Source of the DNA: Bacteroidales bacterium
GTDB taxonomy: Bacteria; Bacteroidota; Bacteroidia; Bacteroidales; UBA12077
Assembly: GCA_028282585.1 (NCBI GenBank)
Contig: JANQHR010000080.1
Location: 13,312-77,311, forward strand
Reading direction: 5' to 3'
DNA: 64,000 bases
Made by a program: the position numbers and the translations under genes. Below are positions 28,316 through 34,751 of this stretch, one piece after another. The notes beneath the pieces were generated by a model that saw only the letters and a list, made by a program, of their open reading frames with translations, did no database searches and was not told the DNA's origin. Each line of letters opens with the position of its first letter. Position 1 is the first letter of the stretch.

Positions 28316-28340
28316 TGAACCAATTATTTTTTAGGTGTAC
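28316..28340 (+). promoter_or_regulatory. ECF-sigma-type promoter TGAACC-N13-GTGTAC for the sigma operon
   Basis: TGAACC aattattttttag GTGTAC, 12 nt before ATG 28353; same boxes and spacing recur at 32556-32580. Confidence 0.8.
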
Positions 28341-28352
28341 AGTTGTTAAAAA

Positions 28353-28553
28353 ATGATGAACCGATACCCAAAATACAAATTAAGCTCATTCAATTCTAAA
28401 TTAATTTTAGGGTCATTTATATTTATAACCTTTAGCTATATACTTATGTATATGGGTTCAAAAAACGGTTTTGAAATATTATCTTTAACAATTTCTCCAA
28501 TTATGCAGGTAATTGGTTATATAACAATTGTAGTTGCAATAATTAAAAACTAA
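28353..28553 (+). CDS. Small two-TM membrane protein, DUF3098-like
   Basis: N..L......I...YILM...SLTISPI..VIGY....AI pattern; first gene of the ECF operon. Confidence 0.65.
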   Translation: MMNRYPKYKLSSFNSKLILGSFIFITFSYILMYMGSKNGFEILSLTISPIMQVIGYITIVVAIIKN

Positions 28554-28554
28554 C

Positions 28555-29145
28555 TTGAGTTTTAGTTTTATTAAACATAAAGGTAGCGATGAAGAGTTGC
28601 TTATTTCCATTGGCAATGGGAATAATAATGCCTTCAATGAGTTATATTCCAGGTATAAGGATAGGTTGTTGTATTTCTTCTATAGAATGCTTTCCCAGGA
28701 CAAGGAGTTAGCAAAGGATTTCTTACAAGAAATATTTATTAAAATCATTAATAAGACACATTTGTTTGACCCTAAAATGAAATTCTCAACATGGATTTTC
28801 AGCATAGCAAATAATATGTGTAAAAATGAATATAGAAAGCAAAATGTCAGAAAGAATACAATAAATCATGAAAATCCTGATTTTATAGATGATAGGCAAG
28901 ATCAGCAAACAAACCATGAACCGGTTCTGAAATTAATTTTTAATCAACTGGAAAATTTTGATGATACTCATAAGTCGGCTTTCTTATTAAAATATAGAGA
29001 AGGCTTTAAAGTTGAAGAAATTAGCGAAATACTTGATTTACCTGTTGGTACAGTTAAATCACGATTATTTTATACAAGAAAAAAAATACAGGAAAACATA
29101 AAAAATCAACACCCTGAATTAATTGAACAATATAATTTATATTAA
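28555..29145 (+). CDS. ECF sigma-70 factor
   Basis: SDEELL...G...AF.ELY.RY, DFLQEIFIKI, FSTWIFSIANN.C.N, EISEIL.LPVGTVKSRL. Confidence 0.95.
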   Translation: MSFSFIKHKGSDEELLISIGNGNNNAFNELYSRYKDRLLYFFYRMLSQDKELAKDFLQEIFIKIINKTHLFDPKMKFSTWIFSIANNMCKNEYRKQNVRKNTINHENPDFIDDRQDQQTNHEPVLKLIFNQLENFDDTHKSAFLLKYREGFKVEEISEILDLPVGTVKSRLFYTRKKIQENIKNQHPELIEQYNLY

Positions 29146-29147
29146 CT

Positions 29148-29498
29148 ATGGATACCTTTGATGACTTTTTAACACAAAAACTAAAAAATGACAAGACTGG
29201 TATTGATATTGATAATTCTTCATTCAAACACCTTCATTATATAGTAAACCTGAATGCTACAAAATCTAGTGTAAAAAGAAACTCAATGTTTAGTTTTATT
29301 TCTGATTTTTTAAGCCCAAGGTTCATTATTGCTAAAGTTGCAATTGTAAGCATATTGTTGGTTCTTTTTATTGAAAATAAAGAAAACAGGCAGCATGATA
29401 GTTTTATTTACCATGCTGACTCTACAGTTACTCATAAAAATTCGTTTGATTCAATATCAGGTTACAGTAGCCCAATCAGCGATACATTATACCGTTAA
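29148..29498 (+). CDS. Putative single-pass anti-sigma factor
   Basis: Starts 2 nt after the sigma stop; soluble N-terminus, one TM (FIIAKVAIVSILLVLFI), 41-aa tail with four D-S/T-x motifs. Confidence 0.7.
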   Translation: MDTFDDFLTQKLKNDKTGIDIDNSSFKHLHYIVNLNATKSSVKRNSMFSFISDFLSPRFIIAKVAIVSILLVLFIENKENRQHDSFIYHADSTVTHKNSFDSISGYSSPISDTLYR

Positions 29499-32400
29499 TT
29501 TAATACCTTATAAAAATATCCATAGTAAGTATTTAAATCATTTAAAACACTATTTCCATTATCGCTGATTACATATTTAATACTTTCAAGTTGTTGCAAT
29601 AAATAAAGATTCATTCTAATATTATTAGCCAATCCCGGTAATAAATTTTCATCAAACCTTTTGTAATAATCCAATTCATTTTTAACATCATTTCTAAAAT
29701 CATTAAATAGTTGAATTGCTTTACTTTCTTGGCCCGCTAAAAAATATGATTCAATAATTGTTACAAAACTAAACCTGTAAGGCACTTTTTCTTTTGGGAA
29801 CAACTCTAAACATTTATTTAGCAACTTAACAGCTCTTTCGTTCTCGCCCTCTTTTATAAGGTTTCGAGCAACATTATTAAACTGTTCTCTAATTTGCATG
29901 GTTGATACAATTCTCACATTTGTCCAATCCAACATAACATTATCATTATTAACTCCTCCCCAATTAAATTCATTCATAAACTTATTATACTGATAACCTG
30001 AATTTGATAATATAGTTGTGCTTATTAAGCTGTCTTTACTAAATGGCATTAAACGATAAGCAAATCCTTCCCTATATAAATACTTTTCTAATCCGGTTCC
30101 TGATAATTTTGCTGGATTCAAAAAATATACCGGGCGTTTCCAATCATTATTTAAAATAATATCTAAAACTAAAAGTTCTGTTCTAAATAAATGGTTGTCA
30201 TTTAATTGAAAATAAATATTATCGGGTATCTCATCAACGTCATATTTAAAGCTCGTACACGATTTTATGAAATTTTCCTTATTTACAGAAATAGTAAATT
30301 TTCTTGCAGGAATATAATCCAACATACTTGCTTCATGTGCGGTTAATTTAGTTTTCGGGTTATCACTACGAATAAAATCAACTAGCTCTTTAAAACCCAC
30401 ATAATCTTTCACTCTTTCATATACAGGTAAATACATTCTTTTACTTCCATGAAAATCTTTATCTTCAAATGAAATTGGAATTGCCCCCATGCCAGGATAA
30501 TCATTTTCTAACTGGCTTATATACCAATCAACAGGAAGAAACTCAATAAGAACTGCCCTTATATCCCTTCTGTATTTTTCTACTTCTTGCGCATACCATA
30601 GAGGGTACGTGTCATTATCTGCTGATGTAAACAAGATTGCATTTTTCTCGCAAGAATTTAAAATATTAAAAGAAAAATCCCGTGCAGTATACCTGTCAGA
30701 CCTGTCATTACCATCCCAGTTTTCACTAATTAAATTTATAGGCAATAGAAAGAACAATAGTATTAGAAAAGATATGTTCAGATACTTACTTTTTCTTTTT
30801 AATATATGAATTAACGCAATAACAGACAATCCTATCCATATTGAAAAAGCATAAAACGAACCAACAAAAACATAATCTCGTTCACGTGGTGTTATTGGAA
30901 CCTCATTTAAGTATATTACTATAGCAATTCCCGTTAAAAAGAATAATAAAAATGTTATTATGAAATTTCTCTGGTCTTTTTTATAATGAAATACCATACC
31001 AATCAAACCAAATAATAGCGGCAGCATAAAATATTTATTCCTTGCAGGATTATTTTCATATTTATCGGGCAGATTATCCTGAGGGCCTAACCTTAGTTCA
31101 TCCAAAGGTTTTATACCTGAAATCCAGTTTCCATGCATAATTTCTCCAAAACTTTGAATGTTATTTTGCCTGCCTGAAAAATTCCACATGAAATACCTGA
31201 AATACATATGGCCAAGTTGATATTTAATAAAAAAAGCCATGTTATCGCGAAATGTTGGAGTTATAATAATTTCTTCATTTCCATTTCTTCCTGCCTTGAT
31301 TTTCTTTCCCTTTATTTTTATCCATCGTTCATATTCTGGTGCGTGTTCATCAACTAAACTAGCCATTCTTGGAAATAAAGTGAGTGTTCTTTCGTCAAAA
31401 ACATAATCCGGATTTAATTCTTTTTTAATATATCTTCCGTTAAAAGGTTTGTAGCTACCTCGACCAACAGATTTCAGAATCGGTGAGTTATAATTATTTC
31501 CATAAATTAAAGGGCGCTTACCATATTGCTCGCGGTTTAAATAATCAACAAGCCCAAAAATGTTTTCCACATTATTAATATCAACATAAGGATTTGAAAT
31601 GGAACGAATAACTAATGTTGTGTAAGATGAGTAACCAATCAAAAAAACAGTAACGGATAAAACAATTGTTCTTAATATGTTCTTATTATATTTTGCAGAA
31701 TACCAAAGCAAATACGTTATAGTTGAAATAATTATTATAATATAAAAAATCACCCCGGTATAAAAAGGCAGTTTAAAAACATTAACAAAAAGTAAATCAG
31801 TATAAGCAGCAGTTTGAACGATTCCTGGAATTAATACAAACATCAGAAAAAAGAGAATAAGAAAAGAAAATAACAATGCTTTAATGGTATCTTTATTATT
31901 AACATTATAACGTTTAAAATAATAAAGTAACACGATTGGAGGAATTGCAAGAAGGTTCAATAAATGAACCCCAATTGACAAGCCCATTAAAAAGAAAATT
32001 AATAATATCCATTTGTCACTATTGGGGTTGCCGACTTGTGATTCCCACTTAAGCATTAACCAAAAAACCAATGCGGTAAAAAAAGAAGATGTTGCATACA
32101 CTTCCCCTTCAACGGCCGAAAACCAAAATGTGTCGGTAAAGGCGAAACTTAAAGAACCAATAAATGCTGCAGTTAATACATAAACTGAATAAGTTAACGA
32201 ATCATTTTTAAAATTACCTACTAGTTTCCTACCAAACCATTCAATTGTCCAAAACAAAAACATAATGGTAAATGCACTTGCTATTGCCGATAATAAATTA
32301 ATCATATATGCCACCTTCGAAACATCATTACCGGCAAATAAACTAACGATACGGCCAATTATCATAAATACCGGTGCTCCCGGGGCATGCCCAACCTGTA

Positions 32401-32530
32401 GCTTATTAGCACAGGTAATAAACTCACTACAGTCCCAATAGCTTATCGTTGGTTCTAAGGTTAAAATATATACTGCTAAGGCGATTAGAAATGTGGACCA
32501 TCCTAGTATAATTGATAACTTCTTTTCCAT
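29495..32530 (-). CDS. DUF2723 / TMEM260-like GT-C membrane glycosyltransferase
   Basis: PTISYWDCSEF, VGHAPGAP, FWFSAVEGEVYA, GVHLLNLL, YLNREQYG, RYFMWNF.GRQ, PRERDY.FVGSF, DNDTYPLWYAQEVE. Confidence 0.92.
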   Translation of the reverse strand: MEKKLSIILGWSTFLIALAVYILTLEPTISYWDCSEFITCANKLQVGHAPGAPVFMIIGRIVSLFAGNDVSKVAYMINLLSAIASAFTIMFLFWTIEWFGRKLVGNFKNDSLTYSVYVLTAAFIGSLSFAFTDTFWFSAVEGEVYATSSFFTALVFWLMLKWESQVGNPNSDKWILLIFFLMGLSIGVHLLNLLAIPPIVLLYYFKRYNVNNKDTIKALLFSFLILFFLMFVLIPGIVQTAAYTDLLFVNVFKLPFYTGVIFYIIIIISTITYLLWYSAKYNKNILRTIVLSVTVFLIGYSSYTTLVIRSISNPYVDINNVENIFGLVDYLNREQYGKRPLIYGNNYNSPILKSVGRGSYKPFNGRYIKKELNPDYVFDERTLTLFPRMASLVDEHAPEYERWIKIKGKKIKAGRNGNEEIIITPTFRDNMAFFIKYQLGHMYFRYFMWNFSGRQNNIQSFGEIMHGNWISGIKPLDELRLGPQDNLPDKYENNPARNKYFMLPLLFGLIGMVFHYKKDQRNFIITFLLFFLTGIAIVIYLNEVPITPRERDYVFVGSFYAFSIWIGLSVIALIHILKRKSKYLNISFLILLFFLLPINLISENWDGNDRSDRYTARDFSFNILNSCEKNAILFTSADNDTYPLWYAQEVEKYRRDIRAVLIEFLPVDWYISQLENDYPGMGAIPISFEDKDFHGSKRMYLPVYERVKDYVGFKELVDFIRSDNPKTKLTAHEASMLDYIPARKFTISVNKENFIKSCTSFKYDVDEIPDNIYFQLNDNHLFRTELLVLDIILNNDWKRPVYFLNPAKLSGTGLEKYLYREGFAYRLMPFSKDSLISTTILSNSGYQYNKFMNEFNWGGVNNDNVMLDWTNVRIVSTMQIREQFNNVARNLIKEGENERAVKLLNKCLELFPKEKVPYRFSFVTIIESYFLAGQESKAIQLFNDFRNDVKNELDYYKRFDENLLPGLANNIRMNLYLLQQLESIKYVISDNGNSVLNDLNTYYGYFYKVLN

Positions 32531-32555: not shown

Positions 32556-32580
32556 GTACACTCAAAAAAAATAAGGTTCA
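32556..32580 (-). promoter_or_regulatory. ECF-sigma-type promoter TGAACC-N13-GTGTAC for the DUF2723 gene
   Basis: Minus strand TGAACC ttattttttttga GTGTAC, 25 nt before ATG 32530 and just downstream of the dcp terminator. Confidence 0.8.
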
Positions 32581-32639: not shown

Positions 32640-34751
32640 CTATTTTAATCCTCTATTTTCTAATAAAGCATCAATAGTAGGTTCCTGACCTCGGAATTTT
32701 AAATATTGAACCATTCCATCGCCCATGCCATTTTCTGCCAGACAATGTTTTCTGAATTTAGCAGCTAGTTCCTGGTTAAATAAATCACCACTTTCTTTAA
32801 ATGCGTTAAATGCATCGGAATCTAACTGTTCTGCCCACATATAAACATAATACCCTGCTGAATAACTACTTCCGCCAAAAATATGAGAGAAATAAGTGCT
32901 TTTATATCTAGGAATAATTTCGTCAATTAAACCAATTTTATTCATTGCTTCTTCTTCGAATTTATTCACATCAATATTTTCGGTTTCCTGTGTTGTATGA
33001 TAATCCAGATCAAGTAACGAAGCTGCAACATACTCCACTGTTGCAAATCCCTGATTAAAATGACCGCTATTCTCAATCTTTTTGATTAACTCATCCGGCA
33101 TTGCTTCTCCCGTTTCATAATGTTTCGCATATTCTTTAATAATTGAAGGTGCAGCCGCCCAGTGTTCCATAATTTGCGAAGGTAACTCAACATAATCTCT
33201 AGGAACATCACGCGAAGTTCTTCTGTAATGACCATCTGCAAAGAAATTGTGTAATGCATGACCAAATTCGTGGAAATAAGTTAAGGTTTCATCCCAACTC
33301 AATAAAGCAGGTTTATCACCTGTTGGTCGAGTAAAATTACATACAATATAAACTACAGGAGTAATCTTCTTTCCGTCTTCATAAGCTCCACTTCTCATAG
33401 CACCACACCAAGCACCACCTCTTTTACCCGGACGTGGGTGGTTATCAATATAAAGAATTGCCAAATGGTCACCATTAGCTTCTTTTACTTCAAATGTTTG
33501 AACCTCTTCATGATAAACCGGAATATCAGTTCTTTCTTCGAAAGTTAAACCATACAACTGGTTAGAAACATAAAAAATTCCTTCACGAACATTATCCATA
33601 GATAAGTAAGGTTTAATTTCTTCTTCATCCAAATCAAATTTTTGTTTACGCAATTTTTCGGCATAATACCACCAATCCCAAGATTCCAGATCAAAGTTCC
33701 CTCCTTCAGTATCAATGATTTTTTGCATTTCATCGCGCTCCTGCTTAGCAACTTTTAAAGCTGGTTTCCAAACTTGATGTAAGAAATTATAAACGTTTTC
33801 AGGAGTTTTAGCCATATTGTTATCAATAACATATTCAGCATAATTATTGAATCCTAATAGCTCAGCTCTCCGGTCACGTAGTTTTACTAATTTGGCAATA
33901 TTAGCTTTGTTATCTTTATTATTATCATTATTACCTCTTTGATACATGGCTTTATATAACTTTTCTCTTAAATCGCGCTTTGGCGAATAAGTCAAAAATG
34001 GGATCCAGCTTGGTTTTTGAAGTGTAAATACCCATTTACCTTCCATTCCGTTTTGTTGTGCAGCTTCGACTGCAGCAGAAATAACACCTGCAGGTAATCC
34101 AACAAGATCCTCTTCATTATCAATAACTAATTTAAAATCATTGGTTTCGGCCAATAGGTTTTGTCCAAACTCTAAAGTAAGCATTGAAATTTCCTGGTTT
34201 ATACCTTTTAATTCCTCTCGTTGCTCTTCCGGAAGTGCAGCCCCATTTCTTTCGAAATCTCTATAATACTTTTCAACTACTCTCATTTGCTCCTGGTCTA
34301 ACCCGAATGTTTCCCTCTTGTCATAAACAGCCTTAATTCTTTGGAAAAGATCCTGATTTAATCCAATCTCATTTCTATAAGCTGACATGATCGGACTCAA
34401 CTCACGCGCTATTTTTTGTAAGGTTGGGGTTGTATTTGCACTATTTAGTGCATAAAAAACATATGCTCTTCTTAGTATATCTTCTCCCTGATCAAATGGA
34501 ACAATTGTGTTTTCAAAAGTAGGTTCTTCAGTATTTGATATTATAACCTTAATTTTTGCTTTTGATGCTTCAATACCAGCTTCGAATGCAGGAATAAAAT
34601 GAGATGTGTCAATTAAATCGAATGGTGGAACCTGAAATGGTGTATCGAATTCCGATAATAATGGATTTTCGTTTGATTTCATTTCATTTTTGTTAGTGCA
34701 ACTATAAAAAAGCATAGTTGCGAGAATAAAAAGTAATGTAAGTTTTTTCAT
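32640..34751 (-). CDS. dcp: M3-family metallopeptidase (peptidyl-dipeptidase Dcp-like), lipoprotein
   Basis: Lipobox FYSC, NPLL, KRGGAW, FHEFGHALH, VELPSQIME, YSAGYY.Y.WAE.LD.D. Confidence 0.9.
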   Translation of the reverse strand: MKKLTLLFILATMLFYSCTNKNEMKSNENPLLSEFDTPFQVPPFDLIDTSHFIPAFEAGIEASKAKIKVIISNTEEPTFENTIVPFDQGEDILRRAYVFYALNSANTTPTLQKIARELSPIMSAYRNEIGLNQDLFQRIKAVYDKRETFGLDQEQMRVVEKYYRDFERNGAALPEEQREELKGINQEISMLTLEFGQNLLAETNDFKLVIDNEEDLVGLPAGVISAAVEAAQQNGMEGKWVFTLQKPSWIPFLTYSPKRDLREKLYKAMYQRGNNDNNKDNKANIAKLVKLRDRRAELLGFNNYAEYVIDNNMAKTPENVYNFLHQVWKPALKVAKQERDEMQKIIDTEGGNFDLESWDWWYYAEKLRKQKFDLDEEEIKPYLSMDNVREGIFYVSNQLYGLTFEERTDIPVYHEEVQTFEVKEANGDHLAILYIDNHPRPGKRGGAWCGAMRSGAYEDGKKITPVVYIVCNFTRPTGDKPALLSWDETLTYFHEFGHALHNFFADGHYRRTSRDVPRDYVELPSQIMEHWAAAPSIIKEYAKHYETGEAMPDELIKKIENSGHFNQGFATVEYVAASLLDLDYHTTQETENIDVNKFEEEAMNKIGLIDEIIPRYKSTYFSHIFGGSSYSAGYYVYMWAEQLDSDAFNAFKESGDLFNQELAAKFRKHCLAENGMGDGMVQYLKFRGQEPTIDALLENRGLK

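Follow-up and report, generated by a model that had tools for sequence, protein, structure and literature searches.

What could a membrane-bound anti-sigma factor sense when it carries no sensor domain? The question is raised by a locus in a 64-kb stretch of Bacteroidales DNA (contig JANQHR010000080.1, positions 13,312 to 77,311 of the forward strand; 64,000 nucleotides, hereafter referred to as the window), in which genes for a DUF3098 protein, a sigma factor and a 116-residue anti-sigma-like protein follow each other in an operon, after which comes a convergent gene for a TMEM260-like glycosyltransferase of the GT-C type. A first-pass annotation, made from the letters of the DNA alone, had read the C-terminal tail of the 116-residue protein as a string of O-glycosylation sequons, i.e. 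as a possible glycosylation sensor. We found this interpretation to be partly supported, and those of its predictions that can be tested on sequence all came out in its favor.

The explanation that we prefer, and to which we give an even chance, is a feedback circuit in which the occupancy of the tail sequons would set the stability of the anti-sigma protein, and hence the expression of the transferase. One extracytoplasmic function (ECF) sigma factor would read two promoters, P1 before its own operon and P2 before the convergent accessory GT-C gene. The N-terminal helices of the anti-sigma protein would retain the sigma factor in the cytoplasm, its single helix would span the membrane, and its unstructured tail would lie in the periplasm, where each fresh tail would serve as a test substrate offering three copies of D-(S/T)-(L/I/V/T/A) about 9 residues apart. 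Once glycosylated, the tail would resist periplasmic proteases and the sigma factor would remain bound. When glycosylation capacity runs short, bare tails would be cut and the anti-sigma protein would be cleared by intramembrane proteolysis, and the freed sigma factor would then induce the transferase together with new sigma and anti-sigma proteins until the tails are reoccupied, i.e. a negative feedback. The parts of this scheme that follow from computation are the motif with its conservation, the gene order, the promoter motif common to both units and the paralogy of the transferase, together with a model in favor of sigma binding; the periplasmic topology, the glycosylation, the enzyme responsible for it, the proteolysis and the direction in which the loop acts are inferred.

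Conserved sequons in the anti-sigma tail

Translation of positions 29373-29498 gave ENKENRQHDSFIYHADSTVTHKNSFDSISGYSSPISDTLYR followed by a stop codon, with the last 41 residues of the protein encoded by 29373-29495, which agrees with the tail sequence and coordinates of the first-pass annotation. A recount also returned its figures for Asp, all four of which directly precede Ser or Thr in the tail, as against one out of seven in the N-terminal 75 residues. The tail motifs DST, DSI and DTL conform to the strict sequon D-[ST]-[AILVMT], and DSF fits a broader version of it. As a background, 10.7% of the Asp residues in open reading frames (ORFs) of at least 200 residues in this genome precede Ser or Thr, and 5.0% form a strict sequon. 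When the tail residues were shuffled 200,000 times, at least four D[ST] motifs arose at a frequency of 0.003 and at least three strict sequons at a frequency of 0.0004. Together with the conservation described below, these shuffles rule out that the sequons are a chance product of a Ser-rich tail, and of the two arguments the conservation is the stronger.

A word-indexed search returned only seven relatives, with 53-60% identity, and among them D91 with its Ser, D101 and D112 are invariant, while DSF (residues 84-86) is not kept even in this close circle. By employing a profile search of 1.84 billion representatives, we found 56 proteins at E <= 0.001, nearly all of them 105-127 residues long. 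The window protein and 51 of the 56 representatives were aligned in 52 rows, omitting three long proteins (191-197 residues), one of 146 residues and a 55-residue fragment. Identity to the window protein is about 24% in this alignment, and its sole invariant columns overall are D91 and D101; D112 is found in 48 of the 52 rows, and no tail column other than these three is invariant or nearly so. The residue directly after Asp is Ser or Thr in 52, 52 and 50 of the 52 rows at sites 1, 2 and 3, respectively, with Ser to Thr counts of 31:21, 28:24 and 38:12. The residue after that (+2) is mostly Thr, Ala or Ile at site 1, Leu, Ala, Thr, Ile or Val at site 2, and Leu, Ile or Val at site 3, with some Cys, Ser and Asn. 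The proposed persistence of the motifs in otherwise divergent tails was thus borne out for three sites. Of the motifs originally listed, DST, DSI and DTL thus proved to be both strict and conserved, and DSF, which has the broad fit only, turned out to be private to the window protein.

The motifs are confined to one side of the protein. Among the 51 short representatives, Ser or Thr follows 156 of the 172 Asp residues in the tails, compared with 18 of 163 in the heads, i.e. the cytoplasmic halves, where the proportion resembles the genome background. At least three D[ST] motifs were found in 49 of these 51 proteins and exactly three in 44, with a median of 9 for both spacings, and in 41 of them the last motif begins 4-7 residues from the C-terminus. 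Tail-specific and PDZ proteases read free C-termini, and a glycan at the last site, being near the C-terminus, could block such proteases. A second sample was drawn via the sigma gene. It comprised 80 metagenome loci, of which 41 had a family member; after four incomplete ORFs, two duplicates and one truncated form had been dropped, 34 distinct and complete members remained. At least three D[ST] motifs were present in 33 of these, and Ser or Thr follows 114 of their 131 tail Asp residues.

Some members depart from the common tail design. In a sub-family found at loci L079, L082, L083, L085, L086, L089, L093, L099, L104 and L137 the tail ends in D-S-[LI]-[RH]-x-D-S-L-[NY] and contains three to five D[ST] motifs, where other tails usually have three; at three of these loci (L086, L093 and L104), each with about 6 kb of downstream sequence, there is no adjacent transferase. 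The three long proteins of 191-197 residues (P0050, P0053 and P0058) have about 75 extra C-terminal residues beyond the three motifs, and the metagenome copy at L080 ends four residues past the predicted transmembrane (TM) helix.

The host organism belongs to the Bacteroidales and thereby to Bacteroidota, the phylum in which this sequon is at home. According to the available part of a review from April 2025 (PMC12871550), a glycosylated Ser or Thr in Bacteroidota almost always has Asp before it, and the +2 residue is most often Leu, Ile, Val, Thr, Ala, Ser or Met, and occasionally Gly, Phe or Cys. The same text places the glycosites in soluble, non-cytoplasmic regions with near-full occupancy, reports that engineered motifs get glycosylated and that roughly half of the non-cytoplasmic proteins carry the sequon, and states that the oligosaccharyltransferase and the ligase of this phylum-wide system 'remain undiscovered'. 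The three sites of the family follow the preference given there at each position. Within the genome of the window, strict sequons were enriched 1.28-fold in crudely predicted secreted proteins, compared with 1.02 in cytoplasmic proteins and 0.90 in a control with Glu in place of Asp. Literature searches yielded no glycosylated or glycosylation-sensing anti-sigma factor, no regulatory glycosylation substrate, no identified Bacteroidota transferase, no paper joining DUF2723 with 'sigma factor', and nothing on this module or circuit; PMC9308784, as far as its accessible text goes, concerns a different, beta-barrel anti-sigma factor.

Predicted sigma binding and membrane topology

Searches with the 116-residue protein gave no Pfam family at E <= 0.1 and no NCBIfam match above cut-off, and as Cys is absent from all 116 residues there is no zinc motif (HxxxCxxC). 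ESM Atlas returned clusters of unnamed 'hypothetical protein' only; the nearest named one, DUF3619 (41% of members, 0.88), lay below the lead threshold and was rejected. Judging from the structural models below, the protein is probably anti-sigma-like in its working, and it lies outside the described anti-sigma families (ZAS/zf-HC2, other Pfam).

An AlphaFold2 model built on the 52 rows shows helices at residues 2-13, 23-39 and 46-54 and a TM helix at 57-79 with a per-residue confidence (pLDDT) above 85, the stretch 57-75 having a Kyte-Doolittle 19-residue mean of 2.36. Residues 80-116 are modeled as coil, with block pLDDT values of 53-63, in line with the earlier remark that no folded sensor domain is evident. 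We also modeled the complex of the sigma factor (12-row alignment) with anti-sigma residues 1-58 (12-row alignment), alongside three controls. The pair scored 0.81 and the best control 0.00; at least 89% of the contacts agreed between runs, and the pLDDT of the partner was at least 67. Of 80 solved complexes, 58 attain that mark, as do 2 of 110 mismatched pairs; these counts apply only roughly, as the alignments used here were our own. In the model, anti-sigma residues 3-40 touch both residues 19-68 (region 2) and residues 122-196 (region 4) of the sigma factor, which supports binding of the sigma factor by the N-terminus. The anti-sigma role, which had been assigned by the first-pass annotation, is thereby favored by the gene order as well as by the complex model.

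Because the N-terminus, as modeled, binds a cytoplasmic sigma factor and there is only one TM helix, the tail is probably periplasmic. The sums of Lys and Arg over the 51 proteins, 75 before the TM helix and 48 after it, are in weak agreement with this.

A promoter motif shared by the sigma operon and the transferase gene

Upstream regions were compared at 12 genome loci: that of the window, three in genomes of its genus and eight in genomes from other families of the order. A common motif, TGAACC-N13/14-GTGTAC, was found both before the start codon of the transferase gene and before the sigma operon. The window has exactly two matches, P1 on the plus strand and P2 on the minus strand (Table 1), and not one of 100 shuffles of the window gave any match; in the whole 4.9-Mb genome, strict TGAACC...GTGTAC occurs at these two sites only. 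The layout of ECF promoters combines a -35 element that ends in AAC with a -10 element that is short. The motif matches this layout, and from their sequence P1 and P2 appear to be ECF-type promoters that depend on the sigma factor.

The motif precedes the sigma operon at all 11 genome loci with sequence available, once as the variant GTGTAA, and thus also at the loci without an adjacent transferase wherever there was sequence; it takes the same operon position in most of the metagenome loci. Accessory, or module-type, transferase genes carried it in ten out of ten cases examined in genomes, one of them as the variant TGAACT...GGGTAC, and in eight of the eight metagenome loci where the region is present, as against none of 11 other (core) TMEM260-like paralogs in the same genomes. 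Nine genome loci out of the 12 have both promoter sites, and in two of the nine one site is a variant. In G318, where the transferase gene lies on another contig than the sigma pair, it retains its own promoter motif. Since this unlinked copy keeps the promoter and the core paralogs are without it, we rejected the idea that the adjacency of the transferase is mere inherited synteny. Induction of the transferase by the sigma factor, a further element of the first-pass annotation, consequently gains support from a motif shared here and at distant loci; what it would induce is, however, a third paralog and not the only copy of the enzyme, as described below.

A genome-wide search for a regulon with a degenerate motif was uninformative, with 10 matches compared with about 7.3 expected. 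A degenerate-motif match on contig C1, ahead of a 117-residue lipoprotein-like ORF, was set aside as probably due to chance. Strict TGAACC-N13/14-GTGTAC was furthermore seen just before a MacB_PCD/FtsX-type ABC permease gene in G184 (L051, C272:247-271) and in G016 (L057, C125:8365-8390); these sites may represent an alternative target, or chance.

The TMEM260-like transferase

The product of the convergent gene matched PF11028 ('TMEM260-like protein O-mannosyltransferase', formerly DUF2723) at E 2.1e-70, with 236.6 bits against a cut-off of 24.2, and the human protein O-mannosyltransferase TMEM260 (PMC10214176; PDB 9rql, chain 9rql_A) at E 1.2e-14 in a phmmer search. With positions counted from the phmmer alignment, its D33 and D638 align with human D52 and D441, which in the accessible part of a preprint on the human enzyme (10.64898/2026.03.17.711096) are named as donor-aligning and catalytic residues. 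The human enzyme is described there as modifying extended peptides held by its TPR domain. In the window enzyme, TPR matches were sub-threshold only (residues 885-914, E 0.011-0.093), and matches to alpha-solenoids in PDB spanned residues 884-980. The two enzymes thus have in common the PF11028 family and both catalytic-site aspartates; they differ in length, with 1011 residues compared with 729 in the solved human chain, and the sequon of the human enzyme is a P/G-rich IPT signature that bears no relation to D-S/T-x.

PF11028 was found in all of the 61 related genomes searched, usually in two copies of about 265-275 bits. The genome of the window has three such genes, the module transferase being the third, accessory paralog. 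Among the genomes of the same genus, G000, G015 and G023 were the only ones seen to have a full-length third copy (242-248 bits), and all three carry the sigma/anti-sigma pair; in G028 a third copy is partial and lies where a contig ends. A tree inferred by a quick method from 518 columns of 20 N-terminal regions had nine module-type sequences on one side and 11 core sequences on the other side of one branch, with a Shimodaira-Hasegawa-like approximate likelihood ratio test (SH-aLRT) value of 100. The copy in G046 was excluded from the tree; at this locus (L013, contig C111, 4541-7541) the transferase is broken up into two ORFs (772 and 256 residues), with a PF11028 match in the 256-residue piece only, owing to a frameshift, decay to a pseudogene or an error of assembly. 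As a tentative extension, the circuit could naturally pair an enzyme with its own sequon, the cell gauging its glycosylation capacity by a reporter peptide of three sequons and responding with more of a TMEM260-like enzyme. In that case TMEM260-like enzymes would be the missing first-sugar transferases for D-(S/T)-x sites in Bacteroidota, and the anti-sigma protein would be the first known regulator to sense a protein-modification state by being its substrate; this is a possibility that we lean somewhat against.

At the sister sigma loci L084 (4731-7500), L098, L111, L125, L128, L130 and L133 the promoter motif of the module is also present, upstream of the sigma gene at a distance of about 1.2-1.35 kb. 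At L084 the motif is followed by a gene for a 400-residue secreted paralog of the periplasmic domain of the transferase, the sigma gene and a gene for a 308-residue anti-sigma protein. The 400-residue protein matches transferase residues 618-670 at E 2e-9 in BLASTP, with Glu opposite D638, and the 308-residue protein has few D[ST] motifs and is without the three-sequon tail. From these sequences it seems that one sigma clade is devoted to TMEM260-like genes, with at least two sensor designs.

Such a domain might sense a peptide without modifying it. In a titration sensor of this kind, the motifs of the tail would dock on the TMEM260-like enzyme, at its periplasmic or its TPR domain, an idle enzyme would protect the tail, and client proteins occupying the enzyme would set the tail free to be cut. 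The TPR domain of human TMEM260 suffices to recruit the extended acceptor peptide (available part of 10.64898/2026.03.17.711096), and the operon at L084, headed by its secreted paralog of the enzyme domain with Glu opposite D638, fits sensing between a domain and a peptide. Free interchange of Ser and Thr at +1 next to an invariant Asp is, on the other hand, the signature of a modified sequon and not of a binding epitope, and the sigma/anti-sigma pair is also retained by genomes in which we found no enzyme of the module type. We hold titration without covalent modification to be distinctly unlikely.

Linkage and distribution of the module

Out of the 12 genome loci, seven had the transferase gene directly convergent with the anti-sigma gene (including the split copy in G046), two had it one gene away, and in three it was not adjacent. 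Of the metagenome loci that have a family member, 14 extend at least 3.5 kb downstream, and the transferase was present in 8 of these 14 (two being mutual duplicates), and two further metagenome loci with shorter flanks also show it. Genomes G016 (L010, contig C219) and G015 (L011, contig C9) have the same gene order, except that in G016 there is no transferase between the anti-sigma gene and a 204-residue ORF, which corresponds by position to a 207-residue ORF in G015.

The anti-sigma family is sparse, having been found in 9 out of 392 good genomes sampled from the order of the window. A search of 400 further genomes across the phylum, with 11 candidates scored per genome, gave no family match at E <= 1e-6. 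On the genome contigs, none of 173 pattern matches was confirmed when the query was a single protein, and an 8-row alignment as the query yielded two loci. Among sequencing runs, one DNA run (X1) contains the stretch and may be where it came from, and no RNA run was listed.

The sigma factor and its DUF3098 partner

The sigma factor matched Sigma70_r2 (E 2.5e-14), Sigma70_r4_2 (E 4.7e-10) and TIGR02937 (101.5 bits, cut-off 42.9), in keeping with ECF (group 4) factors, which have regions 2 and 4 only, over about 190 residues; no equivalog model reached its cut-off. Its orthologs at the 11 other genome loci are 42-79% identical to it. The DUF3098 protein is a third product of the operon, absent from the first-pass annotation. 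The copy in the window matched PF11297 at E 0.015 with 15.3 bits, under the 25-bit cut-off of that family. Out of the 12 genome loci, ten have an equivalent ORF, each of them matching PF11297 at E <= 0.1 and the best one at 1.2e-21. As P1 precedes this 66-residue ORF, and not the sigma gene directly, and as the equivalents match PF11297, we take the operon to consist of the genes for the DUF3098 protein, the sigma factor and the anti-sigma protein.

The canonical DUF3098 gene of the genome (102 bits) was seen elsewhere in it (L142, G000, C6:29701-32901), in the order ftsX, DUF3098, bacA/uppP, truB, where bacA/uppP encodes undecaprenyl-diphosphatase (PF02673, E 4e-75). This neighborhood, in one genome, hints at a tie between the DUF3098 family and the lipid carrier or FtsX.

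With such a partner in the operon, the anti-sigma factor might be an ordinary one, its sequons a housekeeping shield of a floppy tail, and the signal might enter elsewhere, at the DUF3098 protein or the membrane, e.g. as the state of the undecaprenyl-phosphate carrier or as envelope stress, the transferase being one output. This would be in keeping with a first operon gene that is a paralog of the DUF3098 gene between ftsX and bacA/uppP, with the strict motif before MacB/FtsX-type permease genes in G016 and G184, the two genomes for which we found no transferase of the module type, and with the presence of the sequon, at near-full occupancy, in about half of all non-cytoplasmic Bacteroidota proteins (available part of PMC12871550). 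A precedent is given by SigM-YhdL-YhdK of B. subtilis, which in the accessible text of PMC11081497 is an ECF system that is linked to the lipid carrier and includes a small partner in the membrane. Shielding leaves unexplained, however, why, within the tail, invariance or near-invariance is limited to three D-(S/T) sites at fixed spacing and why the sole conserved output is an enzyme resembling protein glycosyltransferases, and its link from DUF3098 to the lipid carrier is a gene neighborhood in a single genome. We consider it an unlikely explanation.

Assessment of the proposed feedback circuit

Against a feedback circuit speak the loci where its parts are separated. The transferase is not adjacent at 3 of the 12 genome loci (G016, G184 and G318) and at 6 of the 14 metagenome loci. 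G016 retains the sigma/anti-sigma pair with three sequons, and all that was found of a module-type transferase to accompany it is a 28-position PF11028 fragment with a stop codon (TGA) on another contig; G184 shows just two PF11028 paralogs, yet all three sequons are kept. Since both genomes keep the sequons with no module-type enzyme found, either the module transferase is not the sole relevant enzyme or the copies are decaying. Furthermore, the +2 residue falls outside Ala, Ile, Leu, Val, Met and Thr at 37 of the 156 D[ST] motifs in the tails, and at the conserved sites it is then mostly Cys, Ser or Asn. The family profile by which the homologs were collected includes the tail columns and may have selected for D-S/T, and in the sample drawn via the sigma gene, too, the downstream ORF was identified with a profile that contains the tail. 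That the complex model scored well may be due to resemblance to sigma/anti-sigma structures that are already solved, and the Lys and Arg bias that goes with the topology is only modest (75 versus 48 in 51 proteins). The convergent, overlapping units that are predicted to depend on the sigma factor could result in interference rather than simple co-induction. Lastly, literature searches gave no bacterial PF11028 member with an assigned substrate, and the bacterial TMEM260-like enzyme might modify something other than protein.

Taken to its end, this last point gives a reading in which the motifs are unrelated to glycans, serving for example metal binding or as a protease site, and the TMEM260-like enzyme acts on a lipid or a polysaccharide. 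Lipid A or polysaccharides are modified by other enzymes of the GT-C type, the lack of a substrate assignment in the literature searched leaves room for this, and the minority of Cys, Ser or Asn at +2 would also be accommodated. The motif nevertheless equals the sequon of the phylum at all three positions, and engineered motifs are glycosylated there (available part of PMC12871550), while Asp residues in the cytoplasmic halves precede Ser or Thr at background level (18 of 163). All in all, we find a role apart from glycans very improbable.

Relation to known systems

E. coli RpoE-RseA and B. subtilis SigW-RsiW are pairs of an ECF sigma factor and a single-pass anti-sigma factor in which the sigma factor is released by regulated proteolysis. 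The locus described here resembles them in that the sigma gene and the gene for a downstream single-pass protein share one operon, that the N-terminus of this protein is modeled between sigma regions 2 and 4, and that the ECF-type promoter is predicted to be autoregulated. Unlike in these pairs, there is no folded periplasmic sensor, no match to an anti-sigma family and no zinc motif, and the proposed input would be the modification state of the tail itself. SigM-YhdL-YhdK, a system coupled to the lipid carrier as employed for envelope glycans (available text of PMC11081497), is the closest functional analog that can be named, as it likewise combines an ECF sigma factor, an anti-sigma factor and a small membrane partner. 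It differs from the locus here in gene order, in that the proteins are unrelated, and with regard to the sequon tail; SigM also has a large regulon, whereas the output here would be a single GT-C gene, with only two strict sites in the genome of the window. With general O-glycosylation substrates of Bacteroidota, as far as described in the accessible part of PMC12871550, the anti-sigma protein shares the motif and its location in a soluble, probably periplasmic stretch of a membrane protein. In contrast to such substrates, however, it is defined by its sequons, three at a spacing of about 9 residues, and it is a regulator.

Going by these comparisons of sequence, the proposed feedback circuit would be a variety of ECF signaling with a plausible new input. 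If true, it would constitute a new principle of ECF sensing, with glycosylation of the sensor's own tail as the input, and not a ligand or an unfolded protein. The regulatory logic would also link the Bacteroidota sequon to a candidate enzyme family, the TMEM260-like GT-C enzymes. Being small, with two 25-bp promoters, a 196-residue sigma factor and a 116-residue sensor, the module could report O-glycosylation activity in Bacteroidota.

Organization of the locus

The features of the locus are listed in Table 1. The gap between the sigma stop codon and the start of the anti-sigma ORF is 2 nt, and the anti-sigma and transferase genes share 4 bp at their 3' ends. It is the stop codons of these two genes that overlap, at 29495-29498 (TTAA), and the same is seen in G015 and G023, so that the two predicted sigma-dependent units run head-on with no spacer between them.

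Table 1. Coordinates of the predicted features of the module within the window.
Feature	Position	Strand	Basis or remark
Predicted ECF-type promoter P1, TGAACC-N13-GTGTAC	28316..28340	+	Motif search; upstream of the DUF3098-sigma-anti-sigma operon
66-residue protein with two TM helices, divergent DUF3098 (PF11297), operon gene 1	28353..28553	+	E 0.015
ECF sigma factor, 196 residues, TTG start as listed	28555..29145	+	Pfam/NCBIfam
Anti-sigma ORF, 116 residues	29148..29498	+	ORF list; sigma-adjacent
Cytoplasmic part of the anti-sigma protein (residues 1-56), with three helices predicted	29148..29315	+	AlphaFold2 and complex model
Anti-sigma single TM helix, residues 57-75	29316..29372	+	Kyte-Doolittle, AlphaFold2
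Unstructured tail, 41 residues, probably periplasmic	29373..29498 (stop included)	+	Translation, AlphaFold2, alignments
Tail motif DSF, private, residues 84-86	29397-29405	+	
Tail motif DST, conserved (D91)	29418-29426	+	
Tail motif DSI, conserved (D101)	29448-29456	+	
Tail motif DTL, conserved (D112)	29481-29489	+	
TMEM260-like GT-C glycosyltransferase, 1011 residues, accessory 'module' paralog	29495..32530	-	PF11028 E 2.1e-70
Predicted ECF-type promoter P2, TGAACC-N13-GTGTAC	32556..32580	-	3' end 25 nt before the transferase ATG

Directly upstream of the transferase gene, on the same strand, lies a 703-residue ORF (32640-34751, minus strand) with a HEFGH zinc-peptidase motif. By position, a 703-residue ORF is also found in G016 and G023, and a 691-residue ORF is located nearby in G015. 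In G016 and G015 the ORF of 204 or 207 residues mentioned above sits between the 703- or 691-residue ORF and the module.

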